DNA of 64,000 nucleotides from a virus. The DNA is taken from positions 22,131 to 86,130 of the IMG/VR virus record IMGVR_UViG_3300024581_002302. The stretch is one strand, 5' to 3'. The position numbers and the translations under genes are program-made. Positions within the stretch are counted from its first letter, which is position 1, and each line of letters opens with the position of its first letter. The notes under the pieces were generated by a model. The model did not search any database and was not told where the DNA came from. It saw only the letters and a program-made list of their open reading frames with translations. Of this stretch, positions 8,620 through 54,463 are shown in pieces.

Positions 8620-8682
8620 GGGACTCAGGCAGGGACGGAGAAGCATTCCGGAACCCTGCGCGCGAACTTCGACTTCCATCCC

Positions 8683-38637: not shown

Positions 38638-40686
38638 ATGTCCTGGCTGAACAACACCCAGGCGAATCTGATCGTCACCGCCATCGACAAGGACGGCAAC
38701 GAGACGGACTACACGAACGAGTTCGTCGACGGACAGATCACCGATGGCTCAGCAATCAACACCGGCGCCGTCCTGACTGGCGGCACGCTGCAGTTCGGCG
38801 AGCTGCCCGGCCAGCAGCGGATCGAGGACTACGAGAAGACGAAGTTCGGTCGCGGGACGATCATCTTGATCGACGTCGAGATCGCCGGCGAGGTGAAGCG
38901 TCACCCGCGCGGGTACCTGTACGTGATCGACTCCACGTACAACATGGAGAACCGTTCCCTCCAGCTCGAGGTCGGCTGCATCCTGACGATGCACAACATC
39001 ACCGACGACATCGGTGACCTCGGCGTGTGGACGATCTTCCCCCTGCCTGGCGACGAGGAAGACGATCCAGAGACTGCGACCTTCAGCGACCTGCTGCAGG
39101 CCATCGCATCCGAGGGGAAGTTCATCTGGCAGACGAACGACGGCACGATCGAGAAGCACGGCTTCTTCGAGGGCGACGGCCTGGGATCCAACAAGGCCGA
39201 GGCGAAGTGGGTCAGCGTTCGCGACTACACCGCCCTGGCTGCTCAGCCCCTCTCGAACGGTTCCCCCGTACCCGACACGATCAAGGTCTCCTATAGCTGG
39301 GAGGTCAAGAGCGGCGACGGTGACGGCGAGACGGATCCGATCACAGGCAAGCCCCAGGAGACCGACTACACGGAATCGTCCTACTTCCTCGAGCACCCGG
39401 CCAACATCAAGAAGCTGCAGAAGATCTGCACCACTGACCCCCAGGGCAACAGGACCTGCAAGGAGGTGGCACTGAACGCCGCGAAGAAGCAGTTCAGCGT
39501 CAACAAGCTGCAGGAATCGCTTCGGATCTATGCGGGCCCAGGCGGCTCTGTGAGTACCGAGAAGAACCTCACGAAGGGGCCAGCAGTCGAGATGGCTGGC
39601 GGCTATTACAGCGAGCTGTACGCGTACGAGCTGGCCCGTGCAGATGGCGATGGCTCGAAGGTCACCCTCAAGGGATTGAACGAGATCCTGCAGACAAGCT
39701 CCGAGCGCACGTACGAGTACGGCACCGGCGGCGAAGTCCTGAAGATGGTCGAGCGCCAGTACAAGAACATCATCGGGGTGATGAGCCCGAACGACTGGAG
39801 AGCCGGCAGCAAGGAGGGAACAGTCTTCGAGCCAGAGGCACCACCGACAGATGCGACCCGTGGATTCCTGACGACTCCACCGATGGATCAGATGTACCTG
39901 GACGTGCAGACGACCACGACGTACGAGTACTTCGACGACCGCACGATCGAGTACACCGAGACCCTCACCTGCTCGGCTGCTTGTAACGGTGTCGGGATCT
40001 ATCCGCCAACAGGCGAGCGAATCCTGCAAAACATCAACGCCGATCAGAACGGTGTGAAGACCACCGTCAAGCGGACCTCGATGGGTGGCCTGCTGAACCC
40101 TGACCAGCCAGGGCGGAACCCAGGCGGTGCTGTCGTCTCGACGAAGTCGAACGTGTACATCGACGAGTCCGCCAAGTACCTCCCCACCTCCGCCGGATCG
40201 ATCACCCTCACGACGACCGTCCCGTACGTCGTGCCCGCGATGAGTGAGCAGGACAGCCGCACACTGGCCGCCGACTACGCCAAGATCCTCCGCGCTCAGC
40301 TGGAGGGAGACGCCTCTGGTGTTCGGATCGCTGAGTCGATGCGCCCGGAGATCTTCGACTACGTGCCCGGGATGCCCTTCACGTATTACGACCGCACCTA
40401 TGAGACCGTCCTGAAGCTGCGGATGAACAGCACCGGCTGGGCCATGGCGCCAGGTCAGTCTGTGTTCTCGACCGAGGGGTGCTTCATCGGTCGCTCGAAC
40501 GGCAAGGTGAACATCCCCGAGAACGCGGACGCCGTACAGCTGGGCGAGATCTTCAAGGAGGTCGACGAGCAGCAGAAGGTGGTGAACGATCTCACCGTCG
40601 AACTGGATGCGATCTCCCAGGACTGCAACGCGAAGCAGGACCTGATGGATGCCATCAATGCGGAGCTGGCTGGGCGGAACCCTTAA
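38638..40686 (+). CDS. Putative baseplate hub/tail tip protein
   Basis: Synteny TMP-Dit-hub; 682 aa, beta-rich. Confidence 0.55.
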   Translation: MSWLNNTQANLIVTAIDKDGNETDYTNEFVDGQITDGSAINTGAVLTGGTLQFGELPGQQRIEDYEKTKFGRGTIILIDVEIAGEVKRHPRGYLYVIDSTYNMENRSLQLEVGCILTMHNITDDIGDLGVWTIFPLPGDEEDDPETATFSDLLQAIASEGKFIWQTNDGTIEKHGFFEGDGLGSNKAEAKWVSVRDYTALAAQPLSNGSPVPDTIKVSYSWEVKSGDGDGETDPITGKPQETDYTESSYFLEHPANIKKLQKICTTDPQGNRTCKEVALNAAKKQFSVNKLQESLRIYAGPGGSVSTEKNLTKGPAVEMAGGYYSELYAYELARADGDGSKVTLKGLNEILQTSSERTYEYGTGGEVLKMVERQYKNIIGVMSPNDWRAGSKEGTVFEPEAPPTDATRGFLTTPPMDQMYLDVQTTTTYEYFDDRTIEYTETLTCSAACNGVGIYPPTGERILQNINADQNGVKTTVKRTSMGGLLNPDQPGRNPGGAVVSTKSNVYIDESAKYLPTSAGSITLTTTVPYVVPAMSEQDSRTLAADYAKILRAQLEGDASGVRIAESMRPEIFDYVPGMPFTYYDRTYETVLKLRMNSTGWAMAPGQSVFSTEGCFIGRSNGKVNIPENADAVQLGEIFKEVDEQQKVVNDLTVELDAISQDCNAKQDLMDAINAELAGRNP

Positions 40687-40705: not shown

Positions 40706-43222
40706 ATGGCAGCACCCGACGCGAATCAGATCTATGCAGTGACAGTCGGAGCGGATACTCCCGACCGGATCTACGTGGTCGAGACACGCGTCGCAGGCAT
40801 CAACCTGAACGACCTCACCGACGAAGAACTCAACGAACTCAAGGGTGACGTCCAGGATCTGATCAACACCTGCACGATTGAAGTCACCGACAAGACGGAC
40901 GAACTCGCAGACGAACAGCAAGACCTCGACGACAAGAAGGACGCATACGACAACGCAGCGACAGCAGGCGAGAAGCCCCCGAAAGTAGAAGACGAGACCC
41001 TGGTCGATGCAGGTGGAGATGGCCCAGACGTGGTCGAGTTCATCAGCGTCGAGATCAGCCTGAACTTCGTGGGCCGTACTGGTAACGGTGACGACGGCAT
41101 CGGCGTGATCCAGGACTGGTCGGTCCCGATCGAGACACGCTTCAACCAGAACACGCTGGTGTACGTGTCAGGCGAGAAGGTCGCCGGCGCTGCACCGCTG
41201 CTCGAGACCGACTTCATCGGATCGATCCCGTCCTTCGGTGACAGCCTGCTGGTGAACGACCAGGGCGTGATCATCCCGGACCTGTTCGACCCATCACTCG
41301 GACGCAACCCCGACCAGACCTTCTACGTGGGCGTGGCTGCACCAGAGGCTGGGACGCTCTGGCGCGTGGTGGTTGGCCCTGAAGTACCGACCCAGATCTT
41401 CGAGGTGACCAGCAGCGCACGTCCTGCGGATCAGACCTTCGAGGTGACTGCGATCAAGACGTACGACGTCCAGGCCGCGAACCTGCCCTTCGTTGTGGAG
41501 GTTGGCCCCGAGCCACCGTTCCAGATCTTCAATGTCCGGACGATGGCCGTCCCTGCGGACAAGACCTTCGTCGTCACCCGTGGACCGAGCAACCCCAGCC
41601 AGACCTTCGAGGTCCTGGCCGGAACGACCTTCCAGGTCAGCACCTCCTGGGGCATCCCCAGCAAGATCTTCTATGTGGGCACCGGCCCAGCACCTGCACC
41701 GATCCCCGACGTCATCTATGGCGTCTCCGTGGGCGGCAACGATGCGCCACCGATTCCCATCCCCGACTTCATCTTCGAGGTCGAGACGTCCTTCGCCGTC
41801 CCGAACCGGATCTTCTCCGTCCAAGCGATCGACACCTTCGCCGTCGATGTGGCCACACCCTTCGTGGTGGAAGTGGGCCCAGAAGTACCCGACCAGATCT
41901 TCAACGTCACCAGCTCCGCGCTGCCATACGACACACAGTTCTCCGTGGCTGTCGGCCCAGAGGTCCCCGATCAGGTCTTCGAGACGCTCATCATCAACGA
42001 ACTCGAGGTCGACGCATACGATCCGCCGAAGCAGTACACCATCCAGGAAGCGCAGCCGAGCCCTGGCACCTACACGTACATCGTCACCGGTGAAGGCCTG
42101 ACCTTCGCAGTTCAGCCCACCATCAACGGCACCGTCGGCCAGCAGTTCCGCTTCAGCCTGGACGTCCCAGCGAACACGATCTGGATCAAGAAGGACCAGG
42201 AAGACGGTCCCGGCGAGCTGGACCCCTACTGGGCAACCCTCAGCGGCCAAGGCACACGGCAAGGCCAGCTGCTGTTCCGCCCCTGGGAGGCTGGCCGCTA
42301 TTACTACCAGTCCGAGTTCAACGCGGACACCTACGGGATCATCGACATCGCCGGCACCTCTGCACCGGCACCCGATCAGATCTTCGAGGTCAGCGTGGGC
42401 GCTTCCAGCAACTACGACGAGATCTTCGAGGTCGTGGTCGGTCCTGAGTTCCCCGACGAGACCTTCGCCGTCACCGTTGAAGGTGGCGCACCTCCGGCTT
42501 CGCAGATCTTCGAGATCGAAGTCGGCCCTGAATCATTCACTCAGGTGTTCGAGGCTCGCGTGGCTGAGTTCCCGATGTCCTACGCCGTGATCAACTCCGG
42601 CGCCAGCTCCTATCGCTTCACCGGCGAGGGCCTGTCGGGCATCAACAACCCAGACCTGACGATCCAGGTCGGTCAGATGCTCGAGTTCAACTTGAACGCT
42701 GCAGGTCATCCCTTGTACATCAGCAACGCCGCAGAAACCGGCACCGCTCCCGACCTGTTCACCTTCACCGATCTCCTGGTCGGCCAGGGCCGGCAGGTGG
42801 GCATCGTTCGGGCGATCTTCAATACCCCGGGCACCTATTACTACAACTGCGAATTCCACGACGCGATGCGTGGGCAGATCACCGTCGTCGGTGATGCAGA
42901 CGCCCCGACCGGCTACTCCGTCGTCGCCTCTGGTGGCGAGTACGTGGTCAGCGGCAACGGCCTGGTGAACGAGACCGACGCCACGATCAACGCCACGGTC
43001 GGCGAGACCATCGACTTCAACCTGGCAGCATCCGGCCATCCCTTCTGGATCTCGAAGGACGCATCGATCGGCATCCCCTCGGGCGACACGCTCTGGGCGA
43101 ATGAGCTGATCAACAACGGCGCAGAGAGCGGTCTGGTGCGCGTCCGCTTCAACACGCCGGGCGAGTACTTCTTCAACTGCCAGTACCACGACTCGATGAG
43201 GGGTCGGATCATCGTCAGCTGA
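40706..43222 (+). CDS. Tail-associated protein with PDQxFxV repeats and three C-terminal cupredoxin-like domains
   Basis: GHP..NCEFHDAM and GHP..NCQYHDSM. Confidence 0.8.
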   Translation: MAAPDANQIYAVTVGADTPDRIYVVETRVAGINLNDLTDEELNELKGDVQDLINTCTIEVTDKTDELADEQQDLDDKKDAYDNAATAGEKPPKVEDETLVDAGGDGPDVVEFISVEISLNFVGRTGNGDDGIGVIQDWSVPIETRFNQNTLVYVSGEKVAGAAPLLETDFIGSIPSFGDSLLVNDQGVIIPDLFDPSLGRNPDQTFYVGVAAPEAGTLWRVVVGPEVPTQIFEVTSSARPADQTFEVTAIKTYDVQAANLPFVVEVGPEPPFQIFNVRTMAVPADKTFVVTRGPSNPSQTFEVLAGTTFQVSTSWGIPSKIFYVGTGPAPAPIPDVIYGVSVGGNDAPPIPIPDFIFEVETSFAVPNRIFSVQAIDTFAVDVATPFVVEVGPEVPDQIFNVTSSALPYDTQFSVAVGPEVPDQVFETLIINELEVDAYDPPKQYTIQEAQPSPGTYTYIVTGEGLTFAVQPTINGTVGQQFRFSLDVPANTIWIKKDQEDGPGELDPYWATLSGQGTRQGQLLFRPWEAGRYYYQSEFNADTYGIIDIAGTSAPAPDQIFEVSVGASSNYDEIFEVVVGPEFPDETFAVTVEGGAPPASQIFEIEVGPESFTQVFEARVAEFPMSYAVINSGASSYRFTGEGLSGINNPDLTIQVGQMLEFNLNAAGHPLYISNAAETGTAPDLFTFTDLLVGQGRQVGIVRAIFNTPGTYYYNCEFHDAMRGQITVVGDADAPTGYSVVASGGEYVVSGNGLVNETDATINATVGETIDFNLAASGHPFWISKDASIGIPSGDTLWANELINNGAESGLVRVRFNTPGEYFFNCQYHDSMRGRIIVS

Positions 43223-43265
43223 TCGATCGGAACCCTACCGGCGACACGACGATCCCCTGCCTCTC

Positions 43266-43604
43266 ATGGCTGTTTTTTACATCGACTCGGTCGCCCAGGA
43301 CACCCTGACGATGGTCAAGGGACAGATCTATCGGTTCGACCAGAACAACGGCTCCAACGCCGCTGCGCCCCTCTCCCTCTCTGAGACTGACGACGGCGAG
43401 AACAACGCCGGCAGCCCCTACACCGTGGGCGTCAGCTACTGGTTGAACAACCTGGAAGTGAACCGGGCCACCTACCTGTCCGGCTTCTCTGCAGCCACCA
43501 GCCGCTTCATCCAGATTCAGGTGGATGCTGGAGCCCCTGCGACTCTCTATTACTACGCCGTCGGCACGGCGGGAATGGGTGGCGCGATCACAGTCACCGC
43601 GTAA
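43266..43604 (+). CDS. Single cupredoxin-like domain lacking Cu ligands
   Basis: G.IYRFDQ..SN.AAPL...APATLYYYAVGTAGMGG. Confidence 0.65.
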   Translation: MAVFYIDSVAQDTLTMVKGQIYRFDQNNGSNAAAPLSLSETDDGENNAGSPYTVGVSYWLNNLEVNRATYLSGFSAATSRFIQIQVDAGAPATLYYYAVGTAGMGGAITVTA

Positions 43605-43614
43605 GGAGTAACAG

Positions 43615-44052
43615 ATGCCAGTTCCCTCCCAGGTATCAGCCGTCGAGCTGGCCCGGATCGCGAACAGCAGCTACGTGAACCAGGCGTTCCGCGTAGCTCT
43701 GGTCGATGCTCCCGGCTCAGACTTCGAGGCCGACGACGACATGTCGACCATCCTCGCCAACGAGGTGACAGCGGGACTCGGCGGCTATGCGCGCCAGCAG
43801 ATCGGCTTCTTGACGGCCGACATCGGTTCGTACCAAGACGGGAAGACAGAACTCGCACGTAAGGCGGCCACCTTCACCCATAACGGCAACGTGAACGAGA
43901 CCATCAGGTTCTCTCACGTGGTGGTCATCAACCCATCAGAGACCGGCCTGGTGTCGACGACAAAGCTCGCAGCGCGGGCTTCACTGTCTGACAGTCAGAG
44001 CGCGGTCTTCTACTTCGACTTCACCCTCTACGGCGTGTTCGTGGTGGAGTGA
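43615..44052 (+). CDS. Hypothetical tail protein
   Basis: Context; codon bias. Confidence 0.65.
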   Translation: MPVPSQVSAVELARIANSSYVNQAFRVALVDAPGSDFEADDDMSTILANEVTAGLGGYARQQIGFLTADIGSYQDGKTELARKAATFTHNGNVNETIRFSHVVVINPSETGLVSTTKLAARASLSDSQSAVFYFDFTLYGVFVVE

Positions 44053-44330
44053 TGGCGAGCTTCGAGGGTCCGATCGAGGAGGCGCTGATGCAGTTTCAGT
44101 CGCTTGTACGGACTGAACAGATCGAGAACGCACGAGAGGCACAGAGAGCAAGGGAGAAGCGGGTCGACGTCACTGGCGTCTGGCTCGGCTTCTCAGTGAA
44201 GGGACTCGGCCTTGTGGAGTACGACGGCAAGGTCTACGAGTGCGAGGTCCTGGGCTCCACCTGCAAGCAGAAGTACGCGAAGGTCAACCTGCGCCGTACC
44301 GACACGAAAAACTTCGCGAGCTGGAATTGA
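44052..44330 (+). CDS. Hypothetical tail protein
   Basis: TGATG coupling. Confidence 0.65.
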   Translation: MASFEGPIEEALMQFQSLVRTEQIENAREAQRAREKRVDVTGVWLGFSVKGLGLVEYDGKVYECEVLGSTCKQKYAKVNLRRTDTKNFASWN

Positions 44331-44369
44331 TCCCGGAACACTGGCCCGAGACATCAGTCAGGGCAGCCA

Positions 44370-44588
44370 GTGGCAGTCAATCGGCCAGACATCAAGAACA
44401 CCGTCGGCCATCGGTTCGCTACTGATACCGCTATCGAATTCCAGGGCAAGGATCCGCGCCTCGCTACTCCACCGAACAACGTCCCGACGTTTCCTGGCCA
44501 GCTGATCGCAGTCCGCACGAGCGCTGGTGAGTGCCAGCTGTTTGTCGGTTCTGACGACCTCACCCGCTGGTTGAAGGTGGTGAGCTGA
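44370..44588 (+). CDS. Small hypothetical tail protein
   Basis: GTG 27 nt after GGAACACT. Confidence 0.65.
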   Translation: MAVNRPDIKNTVGHRFATDTAIEFQGKDPRLATPPNNVPTFPGQLIAVRTSAGECQLFVGSDDLTRWLKVVS

Positions 44589-44589
44589 G

Positions 44590-47500
44590 ATGGCTGACCG
44601 GAGCGAACGCGACATTCTCTCGGCGCTGCTCAGGGTGCAGGCGGAGATCCGCGAGATCGAGAAGGACGAACTCGCCTATGAGTTCGAGCAGCAGAACAGA
44701 ACACAACACGCGAAGATCACGACGTCGACCTACAGGGACACCGAGTCCGACGCCGTCACCCCGACCTCTGGTGCATCCGTTGCGCCTGGCACTGACCTGG
44801 TCCTGACCCCGACAAACAACGCGCAGGACGTCGCGTGGGCTGACTTCTTCAAGAACGCAGAGACGCCTGAGTTCGACGAGCCGACCTGCGTCAATGGCAC
44901 GAACTGCCTCGGCGACAACACCTGCTTCTCCTGGTGGGATTGCGATCCCTGTGACTGGTGCGAGAACGGACAGTGCGTCGAGCGTGATCCGAACCGCACC
45001 TGCCAGGACAGCTCCGAGTGCCCCTGCCCACCGAACGACGACCAGTACTACATCTGCGAGGAGGGCCGCTGCGCCCTGACCTGCAGGCTGAACGAGGACT
45101 GCCCCGAGACCGAGGTCTGCAACCCCGAGACCTTCACCTGCCAGCCAGGCTGCGAGAGCGACGAGGAGTGCGTCCCTGGCCACCCGAACGAGGCACCAGA
45201 CGCACAGCCCGGCACCTTCTGCGTCAACTACACCTGCATCACGCCCTGCGTCCCTCCGACGTACTGCAAGGGCCCAGACGACAAGACCACCTGCGGCGAG
45301 GGTGAGTACTGCGCAGAGAAGGTCGTTCGCGCGACCACTGAGTCCTCCTACGAGGACACGCCGATCATCTACGAATGCGTCAGCGGCTGCGCCTTCACTG
45401 AACAGTGCGAGGTCGAAGTCACCGAGATCGAGAACGGCGACGGGACGATCACCAAGTACGAGCGCCAGCCCGTCTGCATCGAGAACAACTGCACGAACGC
45501 CTGCCGCAACGATGGCGACTGCATCGGTGACCTGAACGAGGTCTGCGTCTCCGGCGCGTGCCAGAGGCAGGGCGACCCATGTGTCAGCAGCGCCGACTGC
45601 GGCGATGGTGAGTACTGCACGAACGGACGCTGCGAGAGCGGCTGCGAGACGACCAGCGACTGCCTGAGGGACTGCGACAAGGTCAAGGCGTGCGTCGACC
45701 TCTGTCCTCCCGAGCCGACCTGCAGCTGCACCGACTTCTTCACCCAGGAGGAGTGCGGAACCAGTCTGACCGAACAGTGGCAGGAGTTCTGCAACCCAGA
45801 CCCCGCCTGTGTTGCTGCCTGTCCTGACGACCCGGAATGCGTCGCAGAGAACGCCCGGGGAGAGACCTGTGTGGACAACACCTGCAAGCTGCTGTGCCCC
45901 TGCCCGAACGACAACTACGCCTGCATCGATGGCGAGTGCGTCGCCAAGACGAGCGACCCCGACACGATCTGCACCACTGAGGAGATCTGCGAGGAGCTGG
46001 ACAACGGGGACATCGAGTGCGTCATCAAGGAGACCTGCGTCGATGTTCCTCCGAGCGATGACCGCTTCCAGGGCTGCGACTGCTCCCTGACCTGCAGCGG
46101 CGCTGGGCAGTGTGTCCCGTCTGTGTGCCGCTTCGACAGCGACTGCGAGGCCTGCTCCTACTGCGCCGACGGGATCTGCGTTCCTGGCTGTGACGACGAG
46201 AACCCCTGCGGCCCTGGTCAGTGCTGCCAGACCGACGGACAGTGCCATGACACCTGCAAGGTCGACGACGACTGCCCCGAGCTGGAGACCTGCCTCGAGG
46301 GCTGCTGTGGTTCACCCTGCGATCCGATCATCGACTGCGTCTCGAGCCAGAGCTGCCCCGACGGGTACTTCTGCGGCGTCGAGAACATCTGCGAGGAGGG
46401 CTGCGCCCGCGATGAGGACTGCAGCGGCTACGACAAGATCTGCGTCGACGACGGCGACGAGGTCAAGACCTGCGTCCAGCGTTGCGACACGACCGAAGAC
46501 TGCGACGACGGGTTCTACTGCTGGGAGAGCACCTTCTGCCGCCTGGATGTCCTGGCGTGCGACAGCGACAACGACTGCCCGCCGCTGATCACCGACTACG
46601 GCGACGTGTTCCAGCAGATCTGCACGAACGGATCCTGCGAGACCGGCTGCCGCAAGGACAGCGACTGCGGCACCTCGATGATCTGCTACGAGAACAGCTG
46701 CGAGTACGTCTGCTCGAACGATCTGGAGTGCGACTCCCTCGGATACGGGGACCGCTGCCAGAGCAACCCACGGGCCAAGGAGGCCGCGGCGGAGTACTGG
46801 AACCGCATTCAGTTCGTGAGCGGTGGCACTGCTGCAGAGTTCGACCGCTGGGAGTTCCTCAGCCGCAGTCAGGACACCGGCTTCTGCGTTGACGTCGATC
46901 TCGACGAGAACGGGAACGTCGTCAGAGAGCAGCGCGCCTGTGAGGGATACGAGCAGTGCGCCCTGAACGGTGAGTGCGAGCGCCTCCCCTGCATCAACGA
47001 CATCGACTGCCCGACCGGTAACTGCCTCTCCGATGGATTGTGCGGCCTGTGCACCCAGGACTCGGACTGCCTCGACGGGATGGTCTGCGACTTCGACGTG
47101 GAGTGCGACAAGAACGGCAACAACTGCGTGACCCAGAAGGAGGGCACCTGCGCCTACCCCTGCATCCCCGACGAGGACTGCGTCGTCGACAGCGACTGCC
47201 CGAAGGGTTCTTACTGCGCCGAGGACAACTATGGAGACCGCGGCAAAGCACCCCGCAAGTTCTGCGCCCAGGGCTGCCGCGAGATCGTGTACTGCGACAG
47301 CGACAACGACTGCCCCCGGGTTGAAGGACTGAACGGTGGCGAAGCCAGTGGCCGCGCCTGTGGACCATCCCTCTGCCCTGAGGGTGAGGTCTGCATCGAT
47401 GGCACCTGCCAGTTCCCGATCAACGAATGCCAGAACGGCCGCTGCTTGTACAACGGCGGCGAGTGCCTGCCTGGTACTGACTGCCGCGACGGCGCCTGCC

Positions 47501-50500
47501 TGAAGACCTGCGAGTCTTCGTCTGACTGCCCCCTCGAATCAGAGGAGTGCATGGGCGGCGTGTGCGTCCAGGTGGGCCTGGCTTGCAGCTCCGACTCTGA
47601 CTGCCCCGAGGAAGTGGGCGAGTGCTATCGCGGCCGCTGCATCGAGGACTTGCGCTGCAGCAAGAACGCCGACTGCGGTGACGATGGTCTGTGCAAGGAC
47701 GGCGTCTGCCAGGAGGGTGACTTCTGCCTGTCGAACGCTGACTGCCAGGCCAAGTGCGAGACAGCTGACGACTGCGACCGGAGGGATTCAACCGAGGACC
47801 CCTGCGTCTCGAGTGCCGACTGCAGCCAGAGCGGCGAGTTCTGCGAGGACGGCAAGTGCATGGCCGCGTACCCGACCTGCCAGGGCGGCTTCTGCTTCGG
47901 CGACAGGGACCCAGTCCGATGCAAGAGCAACCAGTGCGTCGAGGGTGAGCCCTGCAACAGCCAGGCCGACTGCGAGTTCCCGAACATCTGCTACGACGGC
48001 GCCTGCCAGTTCCTCGAGACCTGCGGACCCGGTAACGACTGCACCGACCCGCTGTACTACTGCAACAACGGCGCCTGCGTTCCTGATCTGCGCTGCTCCA
48101 CGAACGGCGACTGCCTCGAGGGCTTCTTCTGCAATCGCTCCGGCACCTGCCAAGAGAACAGCGACCAGCCACGGACCCCGAGCGCTCTCGGCTGCCCTGA
48201 TGACTGCATCCAGTCCTGCAGCTCTGAGACCTTCCGCTGCGAGCCCATCGTCTGCATCGTCGACGACGACTGCCCCTGCGGACCTTGCGGTGGCGACGGT
48301 CTCTGCACCGTTGGCTGTGAGGACGACACCGACTGCCCAGCCGGTCAGGTTTGCGGTGCCGACGGCCGCTGCGAACAGTGCAAGGCCTGCGAAGCCGACA
48401 GCGACTGCGCAGCTGATGTCCCTTGTGTTGAGGGCTGCTGTGATGGCCTGCCTTCCTGCCGCAACGACAGCGACTGCGACATCGGTGTCTGCGTGAAGGG
48501 CAAGTGCCAGGAGTGCCGCCAGGACCGCGACTGCGAGGCCAACTACGGCACCGACGACCTGGTCTGCATCGAGAACAGATGCGAGACCCCCTGCTACACC
48601 GGCCTGTCCGACGGCAGCTGCTTCGACGGCCTGAAGGCTGGCGACCTCTGCGAGAACTGCCCGGAGCAGTGCCCCGAGGGCTACGTCTGCGGAGAGAACG
48701 GCTACGTCTGCGGCACCTATGAAGTCCTGAACACGGTCACGAACCAGGCCGAGACCCGCTCGATTCCTTGCCAGGCCTGCATCCGCCCCTGCAGCTCCGA
48801 CAACATGTGCCGCCAGCGTTGCGACATTGCCGCGGACTGCATCCAGCAGGAAGCCAGCGGCAACAGCTGCACCCCCGGAGAAGAGGACAGCCCCTGCGAA
48901 GTGGGCGAGATCTGCGTCCTCGAAGGCACGAAGGGCACCTGCCAGTGGCCTGCAGCCACCTGCCCCGATGGTGTCTGCCTCGGCCCTCGCCTCGTTCAGG
49001 AGGCTCTCTGCGGACCCGTTGTTCCAGGCACCACGAACCGCTTCTGCGAGTACTTCGACGGCCGCTGCGATAGCGACATCGACTGCGATCGGGTCAGTTC
49101 TCTCGATGGTGTGCCCCGCACCTGTAAGGACAGCCAGTGCATCGAGTCGAACTACTGCGTCGGCAACAGTGACTGCGACCCCGGTCAGGTCTGCGTCGAC
49201 GGCAAGTGCCGCGAGGGCGACTGCACCAGCGACATCGACTGCGGTGTCGGTTACGTGTGCAGCGACCAGAACGCCTGCGTGTACGAGTGCGGCCCGACTG
49301 CTGAGGCCTACACCTGCGCAGCGCCCGATGGCCCCTTCGATGCCGGCAAGCCCTGCCCGCCCGGGTACAACTGCAACACCTCGACGAACCTCTGCCAGCG
49401 TCCCGGCTACGAAGGCGTCGGTCAGTTCATGCCCCGCTGCGGTCAGGGTGAGACCTGCATCGATGGCGGCTGCGCTGCCTGCTCAGGTAACGCGACCCCA
49501 GACGGTGAGGAGTTCGACGACAAGTACGACTTCGAGTGCCGCTCCGACGTCTGCTGCGCTGACAAGGACCCCTGCGACCCGCGTGGTGTGACCACGTTCA
49601 CCTGCAGCAAGGGCAAGTGCGTGGAGATCTTCCGGGCTGGCTACGCCGAGCGCTACCCCGGCGAAGTCCCCAAGCGTTGCGACGAGAAGGACCCAAGCGA
49701 TCAGACACCTGCAGATCAGCCGAGCGAGGAAGTCCAGGACATGTGCGAGAAGAAGGGCGAGTGCTGCGGCCCGACCGGCTTCTGCGTTCCTTGTGCTTGT
49801 GACGAGGAGAACCCCTGCCCAGACAAGGAAGTGATCCTGGCCAACGGCACGAGGGGCACGGTGCCCCAGTGCTGCGACCCGACCACGGGTCAGTGCATGA
49901 CCATCGACCAGCATCCGATGACGAAGTACGGCGCACCGAACAAGTGCTCCTTCGGTCCGGTCTTCTGCGAGGTCCTGGGCCCCGAGGGTGATGACGGCGA
50001 GCGCTCAGTCATCGACGTGACCTCGTACCAGAACGAGCTGTACACCGGCTGCGAGAGCTACCAGGACGCCGACGGCAACATGCAGCGCCGCTGCTACCCC
50101 GGCGGCCCGATCTCACCGAGCCAGATCGCCACGATCCTCGGCCAAGAATGCAACCCACCCGAGGAGAAGGACTGCGAGTGCTCCGTCGAGATCCCTGACT
50201 CCGACGAGTGCTTCCAGGACCTGGACTGCGAAGGCGAGCAGCGTTGCAAGTCGAAGACCTTCAAGGGCGACGCCTGCTGCCCGATCGCTGACGAGAACGG
50301 GAACGACTTCATCGTCCGCAACGTCTGCGAAGGCCAGCGCTCCGACGGAACCTGCCAGAGCGATGACGACTGCACCGACTGCGAGTACTGCGACGGATAC
50401 ATCCCCGGCACTCCGAACCGCGAAGGTCGCCCCGGCACCTGCAAGCAGGACTGCTTGAACCGCTGCCCCGACGGTGGCGAGCTGTCCCAGGCTGGCCAGC

Positions 50501-53500
50501 GCTGCAAGACCTGCGAGGAGTACTACGGCCCGTGTGTTGAGGGAATCACCCTCGAGGAGACCCCGGCCTTCATCGATCCAGAGACCGGCGAGGTGGTGGA
50601 CGCTGTCACCTCAACGACCTGTCGCATCAAGACCGAGACGAACTGCTGCGAAGGCATCACCACGCTCGAGCAAGCACGGAGACAGCGTGACGGCTGCCTG
50701 TTCAAGCGGATCGAGGTCAACAGCCAGATCGTGATCGACCAGGTCGACTACTGCGTCGACTTCGAGAAGGACATCTGCGCCGAGTGCACCGAGGACAGCC
50801 ACTGCCTGGGATCGAACTCGAAGTGCAAGAAGAACATCTGCATCACCGAGTGCGGCGACGAAGACTCCGAGGGCTACGACTACGTCGGCGACTGCACCTG
50901 CTGCACCGGCGAGGGTGAGTGCAAGGAAGCATTCGAGAGCTGGTCCGAGACCCGTGAAGGCAAGCCCGGCCCCGATGGGGTTCAGAGCTACCAGACCCGC
51001 CCCTGCGCCTGCACGAAGACCGGCATCGATTGCGGCCCATGGACTGAGCAGAACAGCTGCTACAAGTGGTTCAAGGTCTCCGACGGCTCTGGCGACGAGG
51101 CCAAGGCCGAGCGGAACCGGATCGAGGAGGAGTACAACAAGGCGCTCGACGCACAGGAGGACCTCGACGAAGCGGCCTCCGAGGGGAACCTCGAGCTGTC
51201 GACTGCTGCTGCAACCCTCACCCAGGCGAAGAAAGACCAGGAGATCATCTGCGGCACCACCGACGCCTGCGATGCGATGGTCGAGGAGTACAACCTCTCG
51301 GACCAGACGCTGAGCGACTGGGCGCTGCGCAAGCAGAACCTGAACGCCGAGCTGGTGGACATGCAGAACCGCCTCGCTGTGGCGAAGAACGCCGTGGCCC
51401 TGACCTCTGCGAAGGTCGACACCTACTGTCCAGACAGTGACCTCTGCCCGTCACTGACCCAGCAGCTGGCCAACGAGCAGGAAGTGGTTCGCCTCCTGGA
51501 AGAAGAGGAGATTCCGGCCAAGGAGGGCGAAATCGAGCAGGCCCAGATCGAGTACGACATGGCCTACGACGAGCGCGAGTACTGGGCCGACCAGGTCGAG
51601 GAGCAGTGCGGCTACAGGCCGTCCTATGGCCAGATCGAAGAAGGCATCGAATCAGAGAACCCCCTCTGCACGCAGGCCGTCGCATACGTCGAGGAGATGC
51701 AGGCCGCATACGACGCCGCATTCCAGAACGCGCAGAAGGCAGCGCTCGAAGCTGACAAGAATCTCGAACTGGTGCTCGAGCTGGAGCGTCAGCTGAACCA
51801 GACCATCTACAAGAAGCCGGAGTGGATTCAACAGCGCACCTGTGACTGCTGCGTCGACGGTGAGTGCCGCGACGACGCCGAGTGCGCTTACGGCACCTGC
51901 TACCTCTGCCAGACCGATCCCGATCCCGAGCGGGAGAAGATCTACCACGTGAAGCTGTACACGAAGGTGCAGCCCGAGCCTGTGTGCACAGGTTGCACAG
52001 ACCTGCAGGGCAACGCAGCCGACAACGCTCCGTACTGCCCCGACGACGCAACAGGCCCGAACCGGGTGAAGTTCGTCGAGGCGAATGAGTGCGTGAAGTA
52101 TCGCTGCGAGGACGGCATCGCCACGATGCAGGAACCTTGCGACGTGTACCAGAACCGCTGGTGGGATAGCTGCAAGGGCTCGATCGTCGGCTGCGTCATC
52201 CAGGGCGGCGGCGGAGTTGGAGGTGGCAACGAGCAGGTGCAGGGCAACGTCGAGACCGCCAAGTACTGGAACGGATACGCGTTCGAGTTCGACTGCCCGA
52301 ACGGCGGCGTCTGGGCGTACAACAACAGCAGCGACTCAGACGAAGCTGGTCGCGGTGGTGACTGGGTGCAGCTGACGAAGGCCGAGGAGGAGTTGACCTT
52401 CAGCAAGTGCGCCTACCCCAACCCCCTCGGACCTCTGGGCGGGAACTGGATCCCGACCTTCGTCGACCTGGTGAAGATCCACCCCTGCTGTGCCAAGGCC
52501 GAGGCGATCTATGAGTGCGACCCCGAGACCCCGAACTGCCAGACCACCTTCGAGGTCTTCTACGAGAGGGGCGACAGCAGCGACCTCCTGGATCGCCTGA
52601 AGCTGCAGGTCAAGGCCCTCGAGAACTTCCTCGAGCAGATCGTGGCAGTGCTGGAAGAACTCGAGCGCATCCGACTGTTGAAGCGTGGAGAGATCTCGGA
52701 CTACGAGGAAGCTCTGACGGAACTCCTGGACGACAGGACCCCCGAAGAGATTCAGGAAGTGATCGACCAGTACGAGGTGCTGATCGAACAGGCCGAGGCT
52801 GATGTCGTCAGGCTCGAGGGTGAGATCGAAGAAGCACAGGAGGACCTCGACGAAGCACAGGAACGCCTCGACGAGATTCTCGACGAGCAGCAGGAGCTGA
52901 TCGACGAGCGCGACGCAATCGTGGAAGAGCGCGACGCGATGCAGTTCGAGTACGACACCCTGATCATCAACGGCGACAACGCGAAGGCCGCATACGAACA
53001 GAAGAGCGGAGAGCTGACCAGGAAGGAGAAAGCCATCACCAATCAGGAGAACCTGATGGTCGAGCAGGGCTGCTCCTGCCCCTGGGTGGACGGCAGAGAC
53101 GAGGAGACGGGCAAGCTGACCGGCCAGCGCGAGCAGGACTGCCCACTGGACGGCGAAGGCAACGAGATTCCGCCCGAGTTCGGCGACACCGTGTACTGCT
53201 TCGACCAGTACACCATCCTCGAGACACTCACCAACGAGAAGGAGATTCTCAAGGGCGAGGCCGAAGAGCTGGAGCAGACCTACCAGGACTACTACAAGCA
53301 GGCCGACGACCTGAAGGGCGGCTACAGGGACGAGGAGGGGAACTACGTCGACGGCATCGATGACCTGAACGAGGACATCGATCGGATCCAGGGCAACATC
53401 AACGGCAAGAACAACACGATCTCGGTCCGCCGCAAGGCTGTGGACGACGCTCAGGCCGAGGTGGATGATCTGCGCCAGCAGCAGGTCACCGCCCAGAACG

Positions 53501-53859
53501 ACATCATCCGGTACACCGAAGAGATCAAGCGCCTCGAAGAGAAGCTCGAACTCGCCGACGAAGACAAGACCGAGCAGATCGAAGCCCTGGAGGATGCGAT
53601 CGAGAAGGCCGACGACGTTGTGGCTCAGATCGACGAACTGATCGGCCTGGTTGAAGAAGACCAGGACGCTGTCGAGCAGGCGATCCTCGAGAAGGAACTC
53701 AAGATCGAGGAACTGGAGCGCGACCTGGGAGTCCCCTCGAAGCCCGAAGCATCGAGCCGTCCTGCCGATGGCAAGACCATCGAACAGATCCAGGAGGAGA
53801 TGGCCGAGGTGGTGAAGGAAGACGAGAAGCGCGCAGGGGACACCTGGTTCCCCGAGTGA
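44590..53859 (+). CDS. Giant cysteine-rich repeat / coiled-coil protein (3089 aa)
   Basis: Dozens of C-x2-D-x-D-C-x3-5-C-x2-G-x-C units; two long heptad regions. Confidence 0.9.
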   Translation: MADRSERDILSALLRVQAEIREIEKDELAYEFEQQNRTQHAKITTSTYRDTESDAVTPTSGASVAPGTDLVLTPTNNAQDVAWADFFKNAETPEFDEPTCVNGTNCLGDNTCFSWWDCDPCDWCENGQCVERDPNRTCQDSSECPCPPNDDQYYICEEGRCALTCRLNEDCPETEVCNPETFTCQPGCESDEECVPGHPNEAPDAQPGTFCVNYTCITPCVPPTYCKGPDDKTTCGEGEYCAEKVVRATTESSYEDTPIIYECVSGCAFTEQCEVEVTEIENGDGTITKYERQPVCIENNCTNACRNDGDCIGDLNEVCVSGACQRQGDPCVSSADCGDGEYCTNGRCESGCETTSDCLRDCDKVKACVDLCPPEPTCSCTDFFTQEECGTSLTEQWQEFCNPDPACVAACPDDPECVAENARGETCVDNTCKLLCPCPNDNYACIDGECVAKTSDPDTICTTEEICEELDNGDIECVIKETCVDVPPSDDRFQGCDCSLTCSGAGQCVPSVCRFDSDCEACSYCADGICVPGCDDENPCGPGQCCQTDGQCHDTCKVDDDCPELETCLEGCCGSPCDPIIDCVSSQSCPDGYFCGVENICEEGCARDEDCSGYDKICVDDGDEVKTCVQRCDTTEDCDDGFYCWESTFCRLDVLACDSDNDCPPLITDYGDVFQQICTNGSCETGCRKDSDCGTSMICYENSCEYVCSNDLECDSLGYGDRCQSNPRAKEAAAEYWNRIQFVSGGTAAEFDRWEFLSRSQDTGFCVDVDLDENGNVVREQRACEGYEQCALNGECERLPCINDIDCPTGNCLSDGLCGLCTQDSDCLDGMVCDFDVECDKNGNNCVTQKEGTCAYPCIPDEDCVVDSDCPKGSYCAEDNYGDRGKAPRKFCAQGCREIVYCDSDNDCPRVEGLNGGEASGRACGPSLCPEGEVCIDGTCQFPINECQNGRCLYNGGECLPGTDCRDGACLKTCESSSDCPLESEECMGGVCVQVGLACSSDSDCPEEVGECYRGRCIEDLRCSKNADCGDDGLCKDGVCQEGDFCLSNADCQAKCETADDCDRRDSTEDPCVSSADCSQSGEFCEDGKCMAAYPTCQGGFCFGDRDPVRCKSNQCVEGEPCNSQADCEFPNICYDGACQFLETCGPGNDCTDPLYYCNNGACVPDLRCSTNGDCLEGFFCNRSGTCQENSDQPRTPSALGCPDDCIQSCSSETFRCEPIVCIVDDDCPCGPCGGDGLCTVGCEDDTDCPAGQVCGADGRCEQCKACEADSDCAADVPCVEGCCDGLPSCRNDSDCDIGVCVKGKCQECRQDRDCEANYGTDDLVCIENRCETPCYTGLSDGSCFDGLKAGDLCENCPEQCPEGYVCGENGYVCGTYEVLNTVTNQAETRSIPCQACIRPCSSDNMCRQRCDIAADCIQQEASGNSCTPGEEDSPCEVGEICVLEGTKGTCQWPAATCPDGVCLGPRLVQEALCGPVVPGTTNRFCEYFDGRCDSDIDCDRVSSLDGVPRTCKDSQCIESNYCVGNSDCDPGQVCVDGKCREGDCTSDIDCGVGYVCSDQNACVYECGPTAEAYTCAAPDGPFDAGKPCPPGYNCNTSTNLCQRPGYEGVGQFMPRCGQGETCIDGGCAACSGNATPDGEEFDDKYDFECRSDVCCADKDPCDPRGVTTFTCSKGKCVEIFRAGYAERYPGEVPKRCDEKDPSDQTPADQPSEEVQDMCEKKGECCGPTGFCVPCACDEENPCPDKEVILANGTRGTVPQCCDPTTGQCMTIDQHPMTKYGAPNKCSFGPVFCEVLGPEGDDGERSVIDVTSYQNELYTGCESYQDADGNMQRRCYPGGPISPSQIATILGQECNPPEEKDCECSVEIPDSDECFQDLDCEGEQRCKSKTFKGDACCPIADENGNDFIVRNVCEGQRSDGTCQSDDDCTDCEYCDGYIPGTPNREGRPGTCKQDCLNRCPDGGELSQAGQRCKTCEEYYGPCVEGITLEETPAFIDPETGEVVDAVTSTTCRIKTETNCCEGITTLEQARRQRDGCLFKRIEVNSQIVIDQVDYCVDFEKDICAECTEDSHCLGSNSKCKKNICITECGDEDSEGYDYVGDCTCCTGEGECKEAFESWSETREGKPGPDGVQSYQTRPCACTKTGIDCGPWTEQNSCYKWFKVSDGSGDEAKAERNRIEEEYNKALDAQEDLDEAASEGNLELSTAAATLTQAKKDQEIICGTTDACDAMVEEYNLSDQTLSDWALRKQNLNAELVDMQNRLAVAKNAVALTSAKVDTYCPDSDLCPSLTQQLANEQEVVRLLEEEEIPAKEGEIEQAQIEYDMAYDEREYWADQVEEQCGYRPSYGQIEEGIESENPLCTQAVAYVEEMQAAYDAAFQNAQKAALEADKNLELVLELERQLNQTIYKKPEWIQQRTCDCCVDGECRDDAECAYGTCYLCQTDPDPEREKIYHVKLYTKVQPEPVCTGCTDLQGNAADNAPYCPDDATGPNRVKFVEANECVKYRCEDGIATMQEPCDVYQNRWWDSCKGSIVGCVIQGGGGVGGGNEQVQGNVETAKYWNGYAFEFDCPNGGVWAYNNSSDSDEAGRGGDWVQLTKAEEELTFSKCAYPNPLGPLGGNWIPTFVDLVKIHPCCAKAEAIYECDPETPNCQTTFEVFYERGDSSDLLDRLKLQVKALENFLEQIVAVLEELERIRLLKRGEISDYEEALTELLDDRTPEEIQEVIDQYEVLIEQAEADVVRLEGEIEEAQEDLDEAQERLDEILDEQQELIDERDAIVEERDAMQFEYDTLIINGDNAKAAYEQKSGELTRKEKAITNQENLMVEQGCSCPWVDGRDEETGKLTGQREQDCPLDGEGNEIPPEFGDTVYCFDQYTILETLTNEKEILKGEAEELEQTYQDYYKQADDLKGGYRDEEGNYVDGIDDLNEDIDRIQGNINGKNNTISVRRKAVDDAQAEVDDLRQQQVTAQNDIIRYTEEIKRLEEKLELADEDKTEQIEALEDAIEKADDVVAQIDELIGLVEEDQDAVEQAILEKELKIEELERDLGVPSKPEASSRPADGKTIEQIQEEMAEVVKEDEKRAGDTWFPE

Positions 53860-53908
53860 TGACCTATTGGGACCAGTCGGAACACTCAGGCGCCTCTGCC
53901 CCGTTTCG

Positions 53909-54463
53909 ATGCAGACCCCTGACTGGACACACTTCCGCTCTGATGGCACAGACCCCAGCGGTCCCTGTTGCCTTCTCCCGAGCGCGTTCCCTGTGGACGA
54001 GCTTCCCCGGAACTACATCTGGACGATCGGCTACATCGGCACCTGGAAGGGCAAAGAGGACGCCGAGATCTCCGCTCAGGTTCGTTCCTACTCGAGGGAC
54101 TTCCTCGTCGAGCGTGCTCACACGTTGAAAGCGAAGAAGGAAGAAGAAAGAAAGCGGATCCAGCAGCTGGAAGTGCTGCAGGCACGCCGCAAGGAACAGA
54201 TGGACCGCCTCACCGCTGACACCATGAAGGATCAGGAAGCAATCAAACGCAAGATCGAAGCGAGCCCGCTGGCGATGGCGAAGAACCTCGTCAAGTCAGC
54301 GGCAGACCTGGCCACCGGCGGCGTCACGGACCCGAAGGAGCGGATGGACATCTGCAACTCCTGCCCGTTCAAAGGCGACGACAATCGCTGCGGCAAGTGC
54401 GGCTGCTTCTTGCCTGCGAAGACAAGGGTCAAGAAGTCGAGCTGCCCGATCAGCCGCTGGTAG
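53909..54463 (+). CDS. Protein with coiled coil and C-terminal DUF6171-like Cys cluster
   Basis: RMDICNSC...CGKCGCF..KT.....CP..RW; ATG 22 nt after GGAACACT. Confidence 0.75.
   Translation: MQTPDWTHFRSDGTDPSGPCCLLPSAFPVDELPRNYIWTIGYIGTWKGKEDAEISAQVRSYSRDFLVERAHTLKAKKEEERKRIQQLEVLQARRKEQMDRLTADTMKDQEAIKRKIEASPLAMAKNLVKSAADLATGGVTDPKERMDICNSCPFKGDDNRCGKCGCFLPAKTRVKKSSCPISRW

Follow-up and report, generated by a model that had tools for sequence, protein, structure and literature searches.

A putative tail-tip and fibre gene block of a P-SS2-like cyanosiphovirus, with independently assorting cupredoxin-like domains and a giant cysteine-rich protein

The seven-gene region and its virus

The stretch of DNA analysed here, referred to below as the window, comprises 64,000 nucleotides (bases 22131-86130, G+C content of about 62%) of the 99.5-kb IMG/VR record IMGVR_UViG_3300024581_002302, which is estimated to be 93% complete. 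The region of interest (window positions 40706 to 54463) holds seven consecutive genes, and all seven open reading frames (ORFs) were recovered on the + strand at the coordinates given below. They encode an 838-aa stalk protein (p838), a ligand-less cupredoxin-like protein of 112 aa (p112), three small proteins (p145, p93, and p72), a giant cysteine-rich protein of 3089 aa, and a basic six-cysteine protein (p184). An earlier note on this DNA had proposed that these genes, sharing one promoter motif, form a redox- or metal-dependent adsorption apparatus, in which copper sites mature or trigger a disulfide-rich fibre. The block is a real, little-studied structural module, while the coupling of copper and thiol chemistry is unsupported.

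PHROG scans of the genome identified a class II ribonucleotide reductase (RNR), a portal, a MuF-like head protein, a tape measure of 1964 aa, and a major tail protein, which shares 48-52% identity with its counterparts in the cyanosiphoviruses P-SS2, S-CBS2, and S-CRES1-3; judged by its sequence, the virus is a cyanosiphovirus related to Prochlorococcus phage P-SS2. The seven-gene region lies directly 3' of the tape-measure gene, with the major tail protein gene also just upstream, and its position directly downstream of the tape measure therefore designates it as a distal-tail block.

Gene correspondence was established by BLASTP against P-SS2 gp077-gp087. The seven genes map one to one on gp079-gp085, in the same order and with identities of 31-77%. 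The 139-aa protein p139 corresponds to gp078; the 682-aa hub protein p682 and the first ~600 residues of p838 together correspond to gp079, a single 1000-aa protein in P-SS2; p112 is the homologue of gp080 (77% identity), p145 of gp081, p93 of gp082, p72 of gp083, the giant of gp084 (2612 aa, 282 cysteines), p184 of gp085 (61% identity), and the 1886-aa protein p1886 of gp086. The tail module of P-SS2 (ORFs 078-086) thus has the same order and a homologue of every gene, including the giant, the 112-aa gp080, and the 185-aa gp085, whereas gp079 is devoid of all three C-terminal cupredoxin domains found in the window.

In P-SS2 virions, mass spectrometry recorded peptides of ORFs 078-084 and 086-091, 43 of them from ORF 084, but did not detect ORF 085 (Sullivan et al. 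2009; PMC2784084, Table 2). The paper gives these ORFs no description beyond 'unknown structural protein', and neither cysteine nor plastocyanin is mentioned in its text (PMC2784084). The P-SS2 homologues of six of the seven genes have, therefore, been detected in virions, the exception being gp085, the homologue of p184. In the light of these peptides, the seven genes constitute a conserved, co-ordered virion appendage module, with p184 probably acting as a non-structural helper. The virion appendage of the earlier proposal is retained to the extent that such a module exists, conserved in 13 loci and present in P-SS2 virions, but without the copper/thiol redox link that it was given.

Nucleotide and structure databases offered little additional information. 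Megablast of the region against 50,697 phage records returned zero matches, an Rfam scan of the region gave nothing, and the PDB yielded no match when queried with the sequences of p838 and the giant or with the p145 and p682 profiles. A WD40 match obtained in the PDB with the profile of p139 was rejected as spurious. No signal peptide or transmembrane segment was detected in any of the seven proteins.

The stalk protein and its cupredoxin-like domains

The stalk protein p838 (40706..43222, + strand) is homologous, in its N-terminal part, to the C-terminal half of P-SS2 gp079. It displays about 15 repeats of 13 residues, of the P-D-Q-I-F-x-V type, followed by three cupredoxin-like domains. The first, D1 (residues 440-550; 42023..42355, + strand; YYYQSEFNADTYG), is ligand-less in all the relatives examined. 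D2 (residues 620-729; 42563..42892, + strand) has a full type-1 set, GHP...C715-x2-H-x2-M, and D3 (residues 731-838; 42896..43219, + strand) likewise has a full ligand set, with C825-x2-H-x2-M. The D3 ligands are kept by the window alone among the tabulated loci; a close homologue, P0008, also carries two C-x2-H-x2-M motifs. All four histidines of p838, and two of its three cysteines, fall in the two GHP...C-x2-H-x2-M motifs of D2 and D3. All four ligands, at amicyanin spacing, are thus found in D2 and D3, and not in D1 or p112.

The family assignment relies on several models. On p838, the Pfam Copper-bind model (PF00127) scores 36.3 bits over residues 649-727, compared to a cut-off of 21.2, and Cupredoxin_1 (PF13473) scores 34 bits, compared to a cut-off of 27, while the NCBIfam plastocyanin and amicyanin models match below threshold. 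A profile of 23 copper domains retrieved auracyanin B (6.8e-5) and amicyanin (4.1e-4) from the PDB, as well as plastocyanin, pseudoazurin, and rusticyanin, with the ligand loops aligned. Across these 23 domains, of about 40% identity, H49, C96, H99, and M102 are invariant; as the domains were chosen by their C-x2-H-x2-M motif, the independent evidence is the invariance of H49 alone. The copper site of D2 and D3 is probably real, and would bind copper where all four ligands persist, but it is probably dispensable. The Cu-site stalk protein described in the earlier note is, in this sense, borne out.

With the small blue copper proteins amicyanin, plastocyanin, auracyanin, and pseudoazurin (PF00127), the phage domains share the His and Cys-x2-His-x2-Met ligands seen in D2 and the amicyanin loop spacing. 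They differ from them by being fused in tandem to a tail stalk, instead of acting as soluble electron carriers, with no evident redox partner, and by having ligand-less sister domains, D1 and p112. Blue-copper-type sites, here predicted, displayed on the tail of an ocean virus were not found described in the literature searched.

The single-domain protein p112 (43266..43604, + strand; 112 aa) contains neither cysteine nor histidine. It belongs to the copper-domain family according to hhalign (probability 92.5%, E 4.8e-7) and genome-wide profile matches, and the ligand-less cupredoxin predicted at this place is, accordingly, what the gene encodes. It also matches PHROG families 708, 677, and 27200, and is the most conserved protein of the block, with 71-90% identity across loci. 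In a profile search of the genome, the only cupredoxin-like domains were D1-D3 and p112. The hub (window 38638-40686) and the stalk (40706-43222) are separate genes here, in different frames, with a copy of the upstream motif described below lying over the stop codon.

The giant cysteine-rich protein

The giant acidic protein (44590..53859, + strand), homologous to gp084, has 328 cysteines in 3089 residues (10.6%), a pI of about 4, and only 7 histidines, and so fully deserves the name of giant Cys protein that the earlier note gave it. A cysteine-free N-terminal part of ~95 residues is followed by ~2,150 residues of four-cysteine mini-modules, then by a distal part of alternating coiled-coil and cysteine segments, and finally by a cysteine-free acidic coiled-coil tail. 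The recurring unit is C-x5-C-x5/6-C-x4-C, often with D-x-D-C and G-x-C; spacings of 5, 4, 3, and 6 residues are dominant, and C-x2-C pairs are a minority. Most of the cysteines (262 of 328) are cysteine in at least 80% of 17 homologues, compared to an overall column identity of ~42%. A tandem-repeat finder detected no DNA-level tandem repeats in the giant gene or in the region.

The family is rare: clustering at 90% identity leaves just 14 clusters in a set of 5.8 billion proteins, and tblastn against the 50,697 phage records found it in P-SS2 alone. No description of such a protein (~3,000 residues, ~285 conserved cysteines) was found in the literature searched. Its cysteine modules yielded sub-threshold matches to DUF7107 (E 0.0077) and Dumpy DPY (E 0.0022), with an atlas score of 0.83, and NCBIfam models returned only coiled-coil (SMC-like) noise. 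The likeness to the EGF/DPY modules of Drosophila Dumpy, and to the DUF7107 and Dickkopf_N-like repeats of Myxococcota, lies in short modules of 4-6 cysteines, present in many copies in a giant acidic protein. Unlike these rods, the phage giant has no signal peptide and ends in coiled coils, its repeats are positionally conserved rather than recently duplicated, and all matches stay below the family thresholds. Export by the Sec pathway was also considered and rejected, as the N-terminus is not hydrophobic.

The ~285 positionally conserved cysteines most likely form intramodule disulfides, and the protein would then be a long acidic modular rod or fibre, made of small disulfide-knotted modules that possibly bind calcium, with a coiled-coil end. 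Since there is no signal peptide and no detectable phage thiol oxidase, these disulfides would form after lysis, in oxic seawater. As it is made in the reducing cytoplasm and neither an export signal nor an oxidase was found, the timing and route of its folding call for explanation. The same facts, together with the very strong conservation of the cysteine positions, favour another possibility, in which the cysteines bind metal (a Zn, Fe, or Cu(I) thiolate) instead of forming disulfides, so that folding could take place in the cytoplasm. This is unlikely, however, as the 5/4/3/6 spacings, the minority of C-x2-C pairs, the 7 histidines, and the G-x-C ends are typical of small disulfide modules and not of zinc knuckles, the sole family hints are extracellular disulfide modules, and virions live in oxic seawater.

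The location of the giant can also be envisaged differently, as an internal or ejected component of the tail, unfolding on reduction upon host entry, rather than as an external fibre. In favour of this view, its gene comes directly behind those of the hub, the protein is extremely acidic (pI ~4) with long coiled coils, and its homologue is abundant in P-SS2 virions (43 peptides; PMC2784084). Nevertheless, its modular cysteine-knot architecture resembles that of extracellular rods, and the genes that come next are again fibre-like, including the 1886-aa protein with a laminin-G (LamG) domain and genes with phage fibre N-termini. The tape measure of a siphovirus occupies the tail lumen, and here 3089 residues would have to be accommodated on top of a tape measure of 1964 aa that already fills it. 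An internal giant is, therefore, considered very unlikely.

The six-cysteine protein p184

The basic protein p184 (53909..54463, + strand; 184 aa), homologous to gp085, belongs to an ORF that opens with TTG at 53867. Its true start is probably the ATG at 53909 rather than this TTG, as indicated by how it aligns with P-SS2 gp085 and by where the upstream motif lies. It is composed of a lineage-specific N-terminal part and a widespread, DUF6171-like C-terminal domain with six cysteines, arranged as C-x2-C-x9-C-x2-C-G-C-x12-C-P; the Cys-cluster protein of the earlier note is thereby recognized. The match to DUF6171 (PF19668) reaches 24.9-25.2 bits, below the cut-off of 27, while phrog_13558 is matched with an E of 1.3e-14.

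This domain is generic in phages. The six cysteines and the CP..W motif are conserved in the 150 best relatives of p184, and the domain was found in 69 phage records, including Stenotrophomonas, Rhizobium, and Xanthomonas phages, and in at least 1,442 clusters (50% identity; E<=1e-3). In S-CBS2, which has no giant, it stands among tail-fibre genes. A full signature of the domain can be written as R-x3-C-x2-C-x9-C-x2-C-G-C-x4-K-x7-C-P-x3-W, and occurs mostly in largely viral proteins of 50-150 aa. The label 'DNA-directed RNAP' or 'RNA polymerase-like' borne by the p184 homologues of P-SS2 and S-CBS2 was rejected, as the shared part is only the Cys-cluster mini-domain.

Comparison of related loci

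The loci compared comprise nine around metagenomic homologues, P-SS2, a 106-kb provirus (SYN20), and three IMG/VR fragments. The order 112-145-93-72-giant-185 is unchanged in 13 related loci and, wherever covered, the full order is tape measure, ~140 aa, a variable slot, 112, 145, ~93, ~72, giant, ~185, and ~1900. The hub/stalk slot is the sole variable position. It holds either two genes of 700 and 800-935 aa with cupredoxin domains, two genes of 622 and 462 aa with one such domain, a fused gene of ~1520 aa followed by a Laminin_G_3 protein, or a fused gene of 1000 aa with no extra domain. In L013, L015, and L017, which have a single hub-stalk gene of ~1520 aa, the third cupredoxin-like domain is located at the N-terminus of a separate Laminin_G_3 protein.

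The state of D2 was scored in 13 loci with a hidden Markov model built from the copper domains. The full ligand set is found in nine of them (the window, SYN20, L011, L012, L013, L016, L017, L018, and L019). In L014 and L015, the scaffold is kept and three of the four ligands are lost, the His of GHP being replaced by Tyr, the Cys by Ser, and the other His by Lys. In P-SS2 and L004, the domain is absent; it is also absent from L005, a short fragment that ends before the giant gene. In a profile search of the complete P-SS2 genome, the sole match was the ligand-less gp080. A tree of the giant places L014 and L015 together as sisters inside a copper-positive clade, and P-SS2 with the copper-positive L011 and L019; the copper site has, therefore, been lost or is absent at least twice.

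The giant shows no corresponding change. Its cysteine content ranges from 9.7 to 11.4% in the 12 loci holding a complete giant gene. Among its 285 framework cysteine columns, 98% are kept in L014 and L015, and 88% in P-SS2, the same value as in its copper-positive neighbours L011 and L019.

The copper module is, conversely, common outside this lineage. It was found in 31 phage records other than P-SS2, mostly T4-like cyanomyoviruses, none of which matched the giant in tblastn (0/31). A further 60 metagenomic proteins, within the length range sampled, contain it as well, with an almost invariant GTYYYxC-x2-H-x2-M motif, and are built differently, as subtilases, gp53-like baseplate proteins, or fusions with CHRD, collagen, and fn3. 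These domains belong to the same family as those of the window, the tail-fibre and baseplate copper module of marine phages (PHROG 677, 9158, 27200; motif GTYYYxC-x2-H-x2-M-xG-x-I), from which the window differs by presenting it on a siphovirus stalk, in triplicate, and with graded loss of ligands.

The copper, thiol, and Cys-cluster parts, thus, assort independently, even though the gene order is fixed in 13 loci; co-occurrence profiling does not uphold the single system postulated beforehand, and a functional copper-thiol link is not supported, the copper sites being absent from P-SS2 and decayed in L014 and L015 while the cysteine framework of the giant stays. In that system, type-1 copper sites would oxidise, mature, or trigger the disulfide-rich giant fibre, all seven genes forming one copper/thiol adsorption apparatus. 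It can be credited with the adjacency and fixed order of the genes, with a ligand-bearing D2 in nine of the 13 giant-carrying loci, and with ligands that either persist as a full set or have mostly gone at once, the pattern a functional site would give. Nevertheless, P-SS2 virions contain the giant and the P-SS2 genome has no copper-site domain, the ligand loss of L014 and L015 was accompanied by no relaxation of the cysteine framework, and myovirus tail proteins often bear the copper module with no match to the giant. The Cys-cluster protein, moreover, is a generic phage family whose P-SS2 member was not detected in virions. Such an apparatus, which would constitute new virion chemistry, is thus highly improbable, and the comparative data arguing against it spare bench effort.

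Redox helpers

Type-1 copper sites are buried one-electron carriers and not thiol oxidases, and no trinuclear or oxidase partner was found: multicopper oxidases (PF07732, trinuclear-centre Cu-oxidase domains) gave no match in the genome, with positive controls. A search for Dsb-like genes had been suggested as a check; DsbA, as well as glutaredoxin and VKOR, was without match in the genome, again with positive controls. The sole thioredoxin-like ORF, at G000:C1:21107-21340 and so shortly before the start of the window, is weak, its 17.4 bits falling short of the cut-off. It is located directly upstream of the class II RNR gene, in the same arrangement as P-SS2 ORFs 010 and 011, and most simply serves the RNR enzyme.

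Searches of the literature on cupredoxin- or plastocyanin-like phage-tail domains, and on cysteine-rich virion proteins of cyanophages, returned nothing relevant except cyanomyophage Pam3 (PMC9942802). The tail-tip architecture of Pam3 is disulfide-dependent and reductant-responsive, and its fibre attachment relies on disulfides (PMC9942802). That redox-sensitive disulfides govern fibre attachment in this phage speaks for a copper/thiol apparatus; it equally shows that the tail tip of a cyanophage can depend on disulfides, in keeping with those proposed here for the giant. However, Pam3 has a few inter-subunit disulfides in small wedge and fibre proteins, with neither a giant cysteine-module protein nor a copper domain.

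Proposed organization of the tail tip

Taken together, these results make it quite probable that this P-SS2-like cyanosiphovirus encodes in the region the assembly block of its distal tail (tail tip and fibre), with copper sites that are optional and independent of the cysteine protein. Homology, synteny, conservation, the virion presence of homologues, and the independence of the copper site and the cysteine protein are documented here or in print; to these we add, by inference, copper binding, disulfides, the fibre shape, and the helper role of p184.

In such a block, p682 and p838 (together, gp079) would probably make up a hub and a beta-stranded stalk, to which swappable peripheral domains would be attached; these are cupredoxin-like, laminin-G/concanavalin A (ConA)-like, or missing, depending on the relative. 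The alternation of cupredoxin with lectin-like LamG domains at the stalk slot suggests a role in surface contact or stabilisation. The two cupredoxin domains that keep the amicyanin-type site probably bind copper, which may be an optional property of a decoration or adhesion domain. The small proteins p112, p145, p93, and p72 would be structural components of the tip, whereas p184 would be a non-virion, basic, probably metal-binding six-cysteine helper, from a very widespread phage family.

Several points weigh against this reading. The copper site is kept beside the giant in nine of the 13 lineage members, and a facultative interaction of the two may, consequently, exist. L014 and L015 were viewed over ~10 kb either side of the giant, or ~30 kb each, so that a copper domain elsewhere in these genomes is possible. 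Erv-like genes gave no match in the genome, but the controls of this search were silent too. The sole structure prediction, a single-sequence AlphaFold model of p838 residues 435-838, has a mean predicted local distance difference test (pLDDT) score of 44.7, too low to be used, and the copper binding, the disulfides, and the tail position of each protein are predictions drawn from sequence.

A facultative copper role can be formulated, in which the type-1 centres at the tail tip of copper-keeping lineages act as redox centres, for instance by accepting electrons from thiols on the giant or the host surface, so as to lock or release the fibre during adsorption, while relatives with no such sites would rely on uncatalysed oxidation. 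If true, phage adsorption would then include, facultatively, a redox step assisted by copper, for which there is no precedent, although we give this reading very little credence. The copper-plus loci L013 and L017, compared with the copper-minus L014 and L015, offer a ready natural comparison for the function of the copper site.

Putative small virion proteins and neighbouring genes

Between p112 and the giant lie three small genes, all on the + strand, which encode putative virion proteins of 145 aa (p145, 43615..44052), 93 aa (p93, 44049..44330), and 72 aa (p72, 44370..44588), the respective homologues of gp081, gp082, and gp083 found by BLASTP. All three are conserved, being present wherever a related locus extends over this part. 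Over its N-terminal 105 residues, p145 matches S-CBS2 gp025 (L022 2026-2754) and S-CRES proteins, annotated as structural, which places p145 in a tail core shared more widely among cyanosiphoviruses than the giant is.

The 1886-aa gp086 homologue (window 54500-60160) contains a Laminin_G_3/ConA-like lectin domain (E 2.6e-26) and follows p184 in all loci. It is a likelier host-binding protein than the copper domains.

The upstream late-gene motif

The motif CGGAA[ACG][ACG]CT is present in 27 copies in the genome, 25 of them on the + strand, usually 22-35 nt before a start codon and right after the previous stop codon. A tighter form, CGGAAMSCT, has 9 copies in the window, compared to 2.3 expected by chance. 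The motif precedes four of the seven genes (p838, p112, p72, and p184) and about 20 others, including head, neck, and other tail genes. In P-SS2 and six other relatives it is found at matching intergenic sites, on the coding strand in every case; copies of CGGAA-NN-CT were noted in L002, L010, L012-L014, L016, and L019, and the P-SS2-like phages that share it range in G+C content from 50% to 62%. CGGAA-NN-CT is set down here on the strength of its distribution as probably a lineage-specific late promoter or RNA signal. No sigma-70 promoter was found in a scan of the region. The motif that had been taken for a promoter shared by the seven genes is, thus, real, but it is a genome-wide late-gene motif; being conserved lineage-wide before many late genes, it provides no evidence that these seven form a special unit.

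All the copies positioned in the window are on the + strand. The copy CGGAACCCT (43228..43236) is located 29 nt upstream of the start of p112. A pattern search placed the other copies in or beside the region at starts 40675, 44334, 53878, and 54468, and the remaining ones in the window at 8649, 8906, 16622, 19971, 21640, 23478, 30728, 32254, 38185, and 62048.

A possible P-SS2-type prophage in a Synechococcus chromosome

One of the loci compared, L003/L010, is IMGVR_UViG_2910013374_000001, a complete P-SS2-like element of 106,484 bp, classed as a provirus and 99% complete. In NCBI, its stalk protein, P0013, is named as a protein of Synechococcus sp. SYN20 encoded on a 2.73-Mb contig, which suggests that a marine Synechococcus chromosome harbours a P-SS2-type prophage, to all appearances intact.

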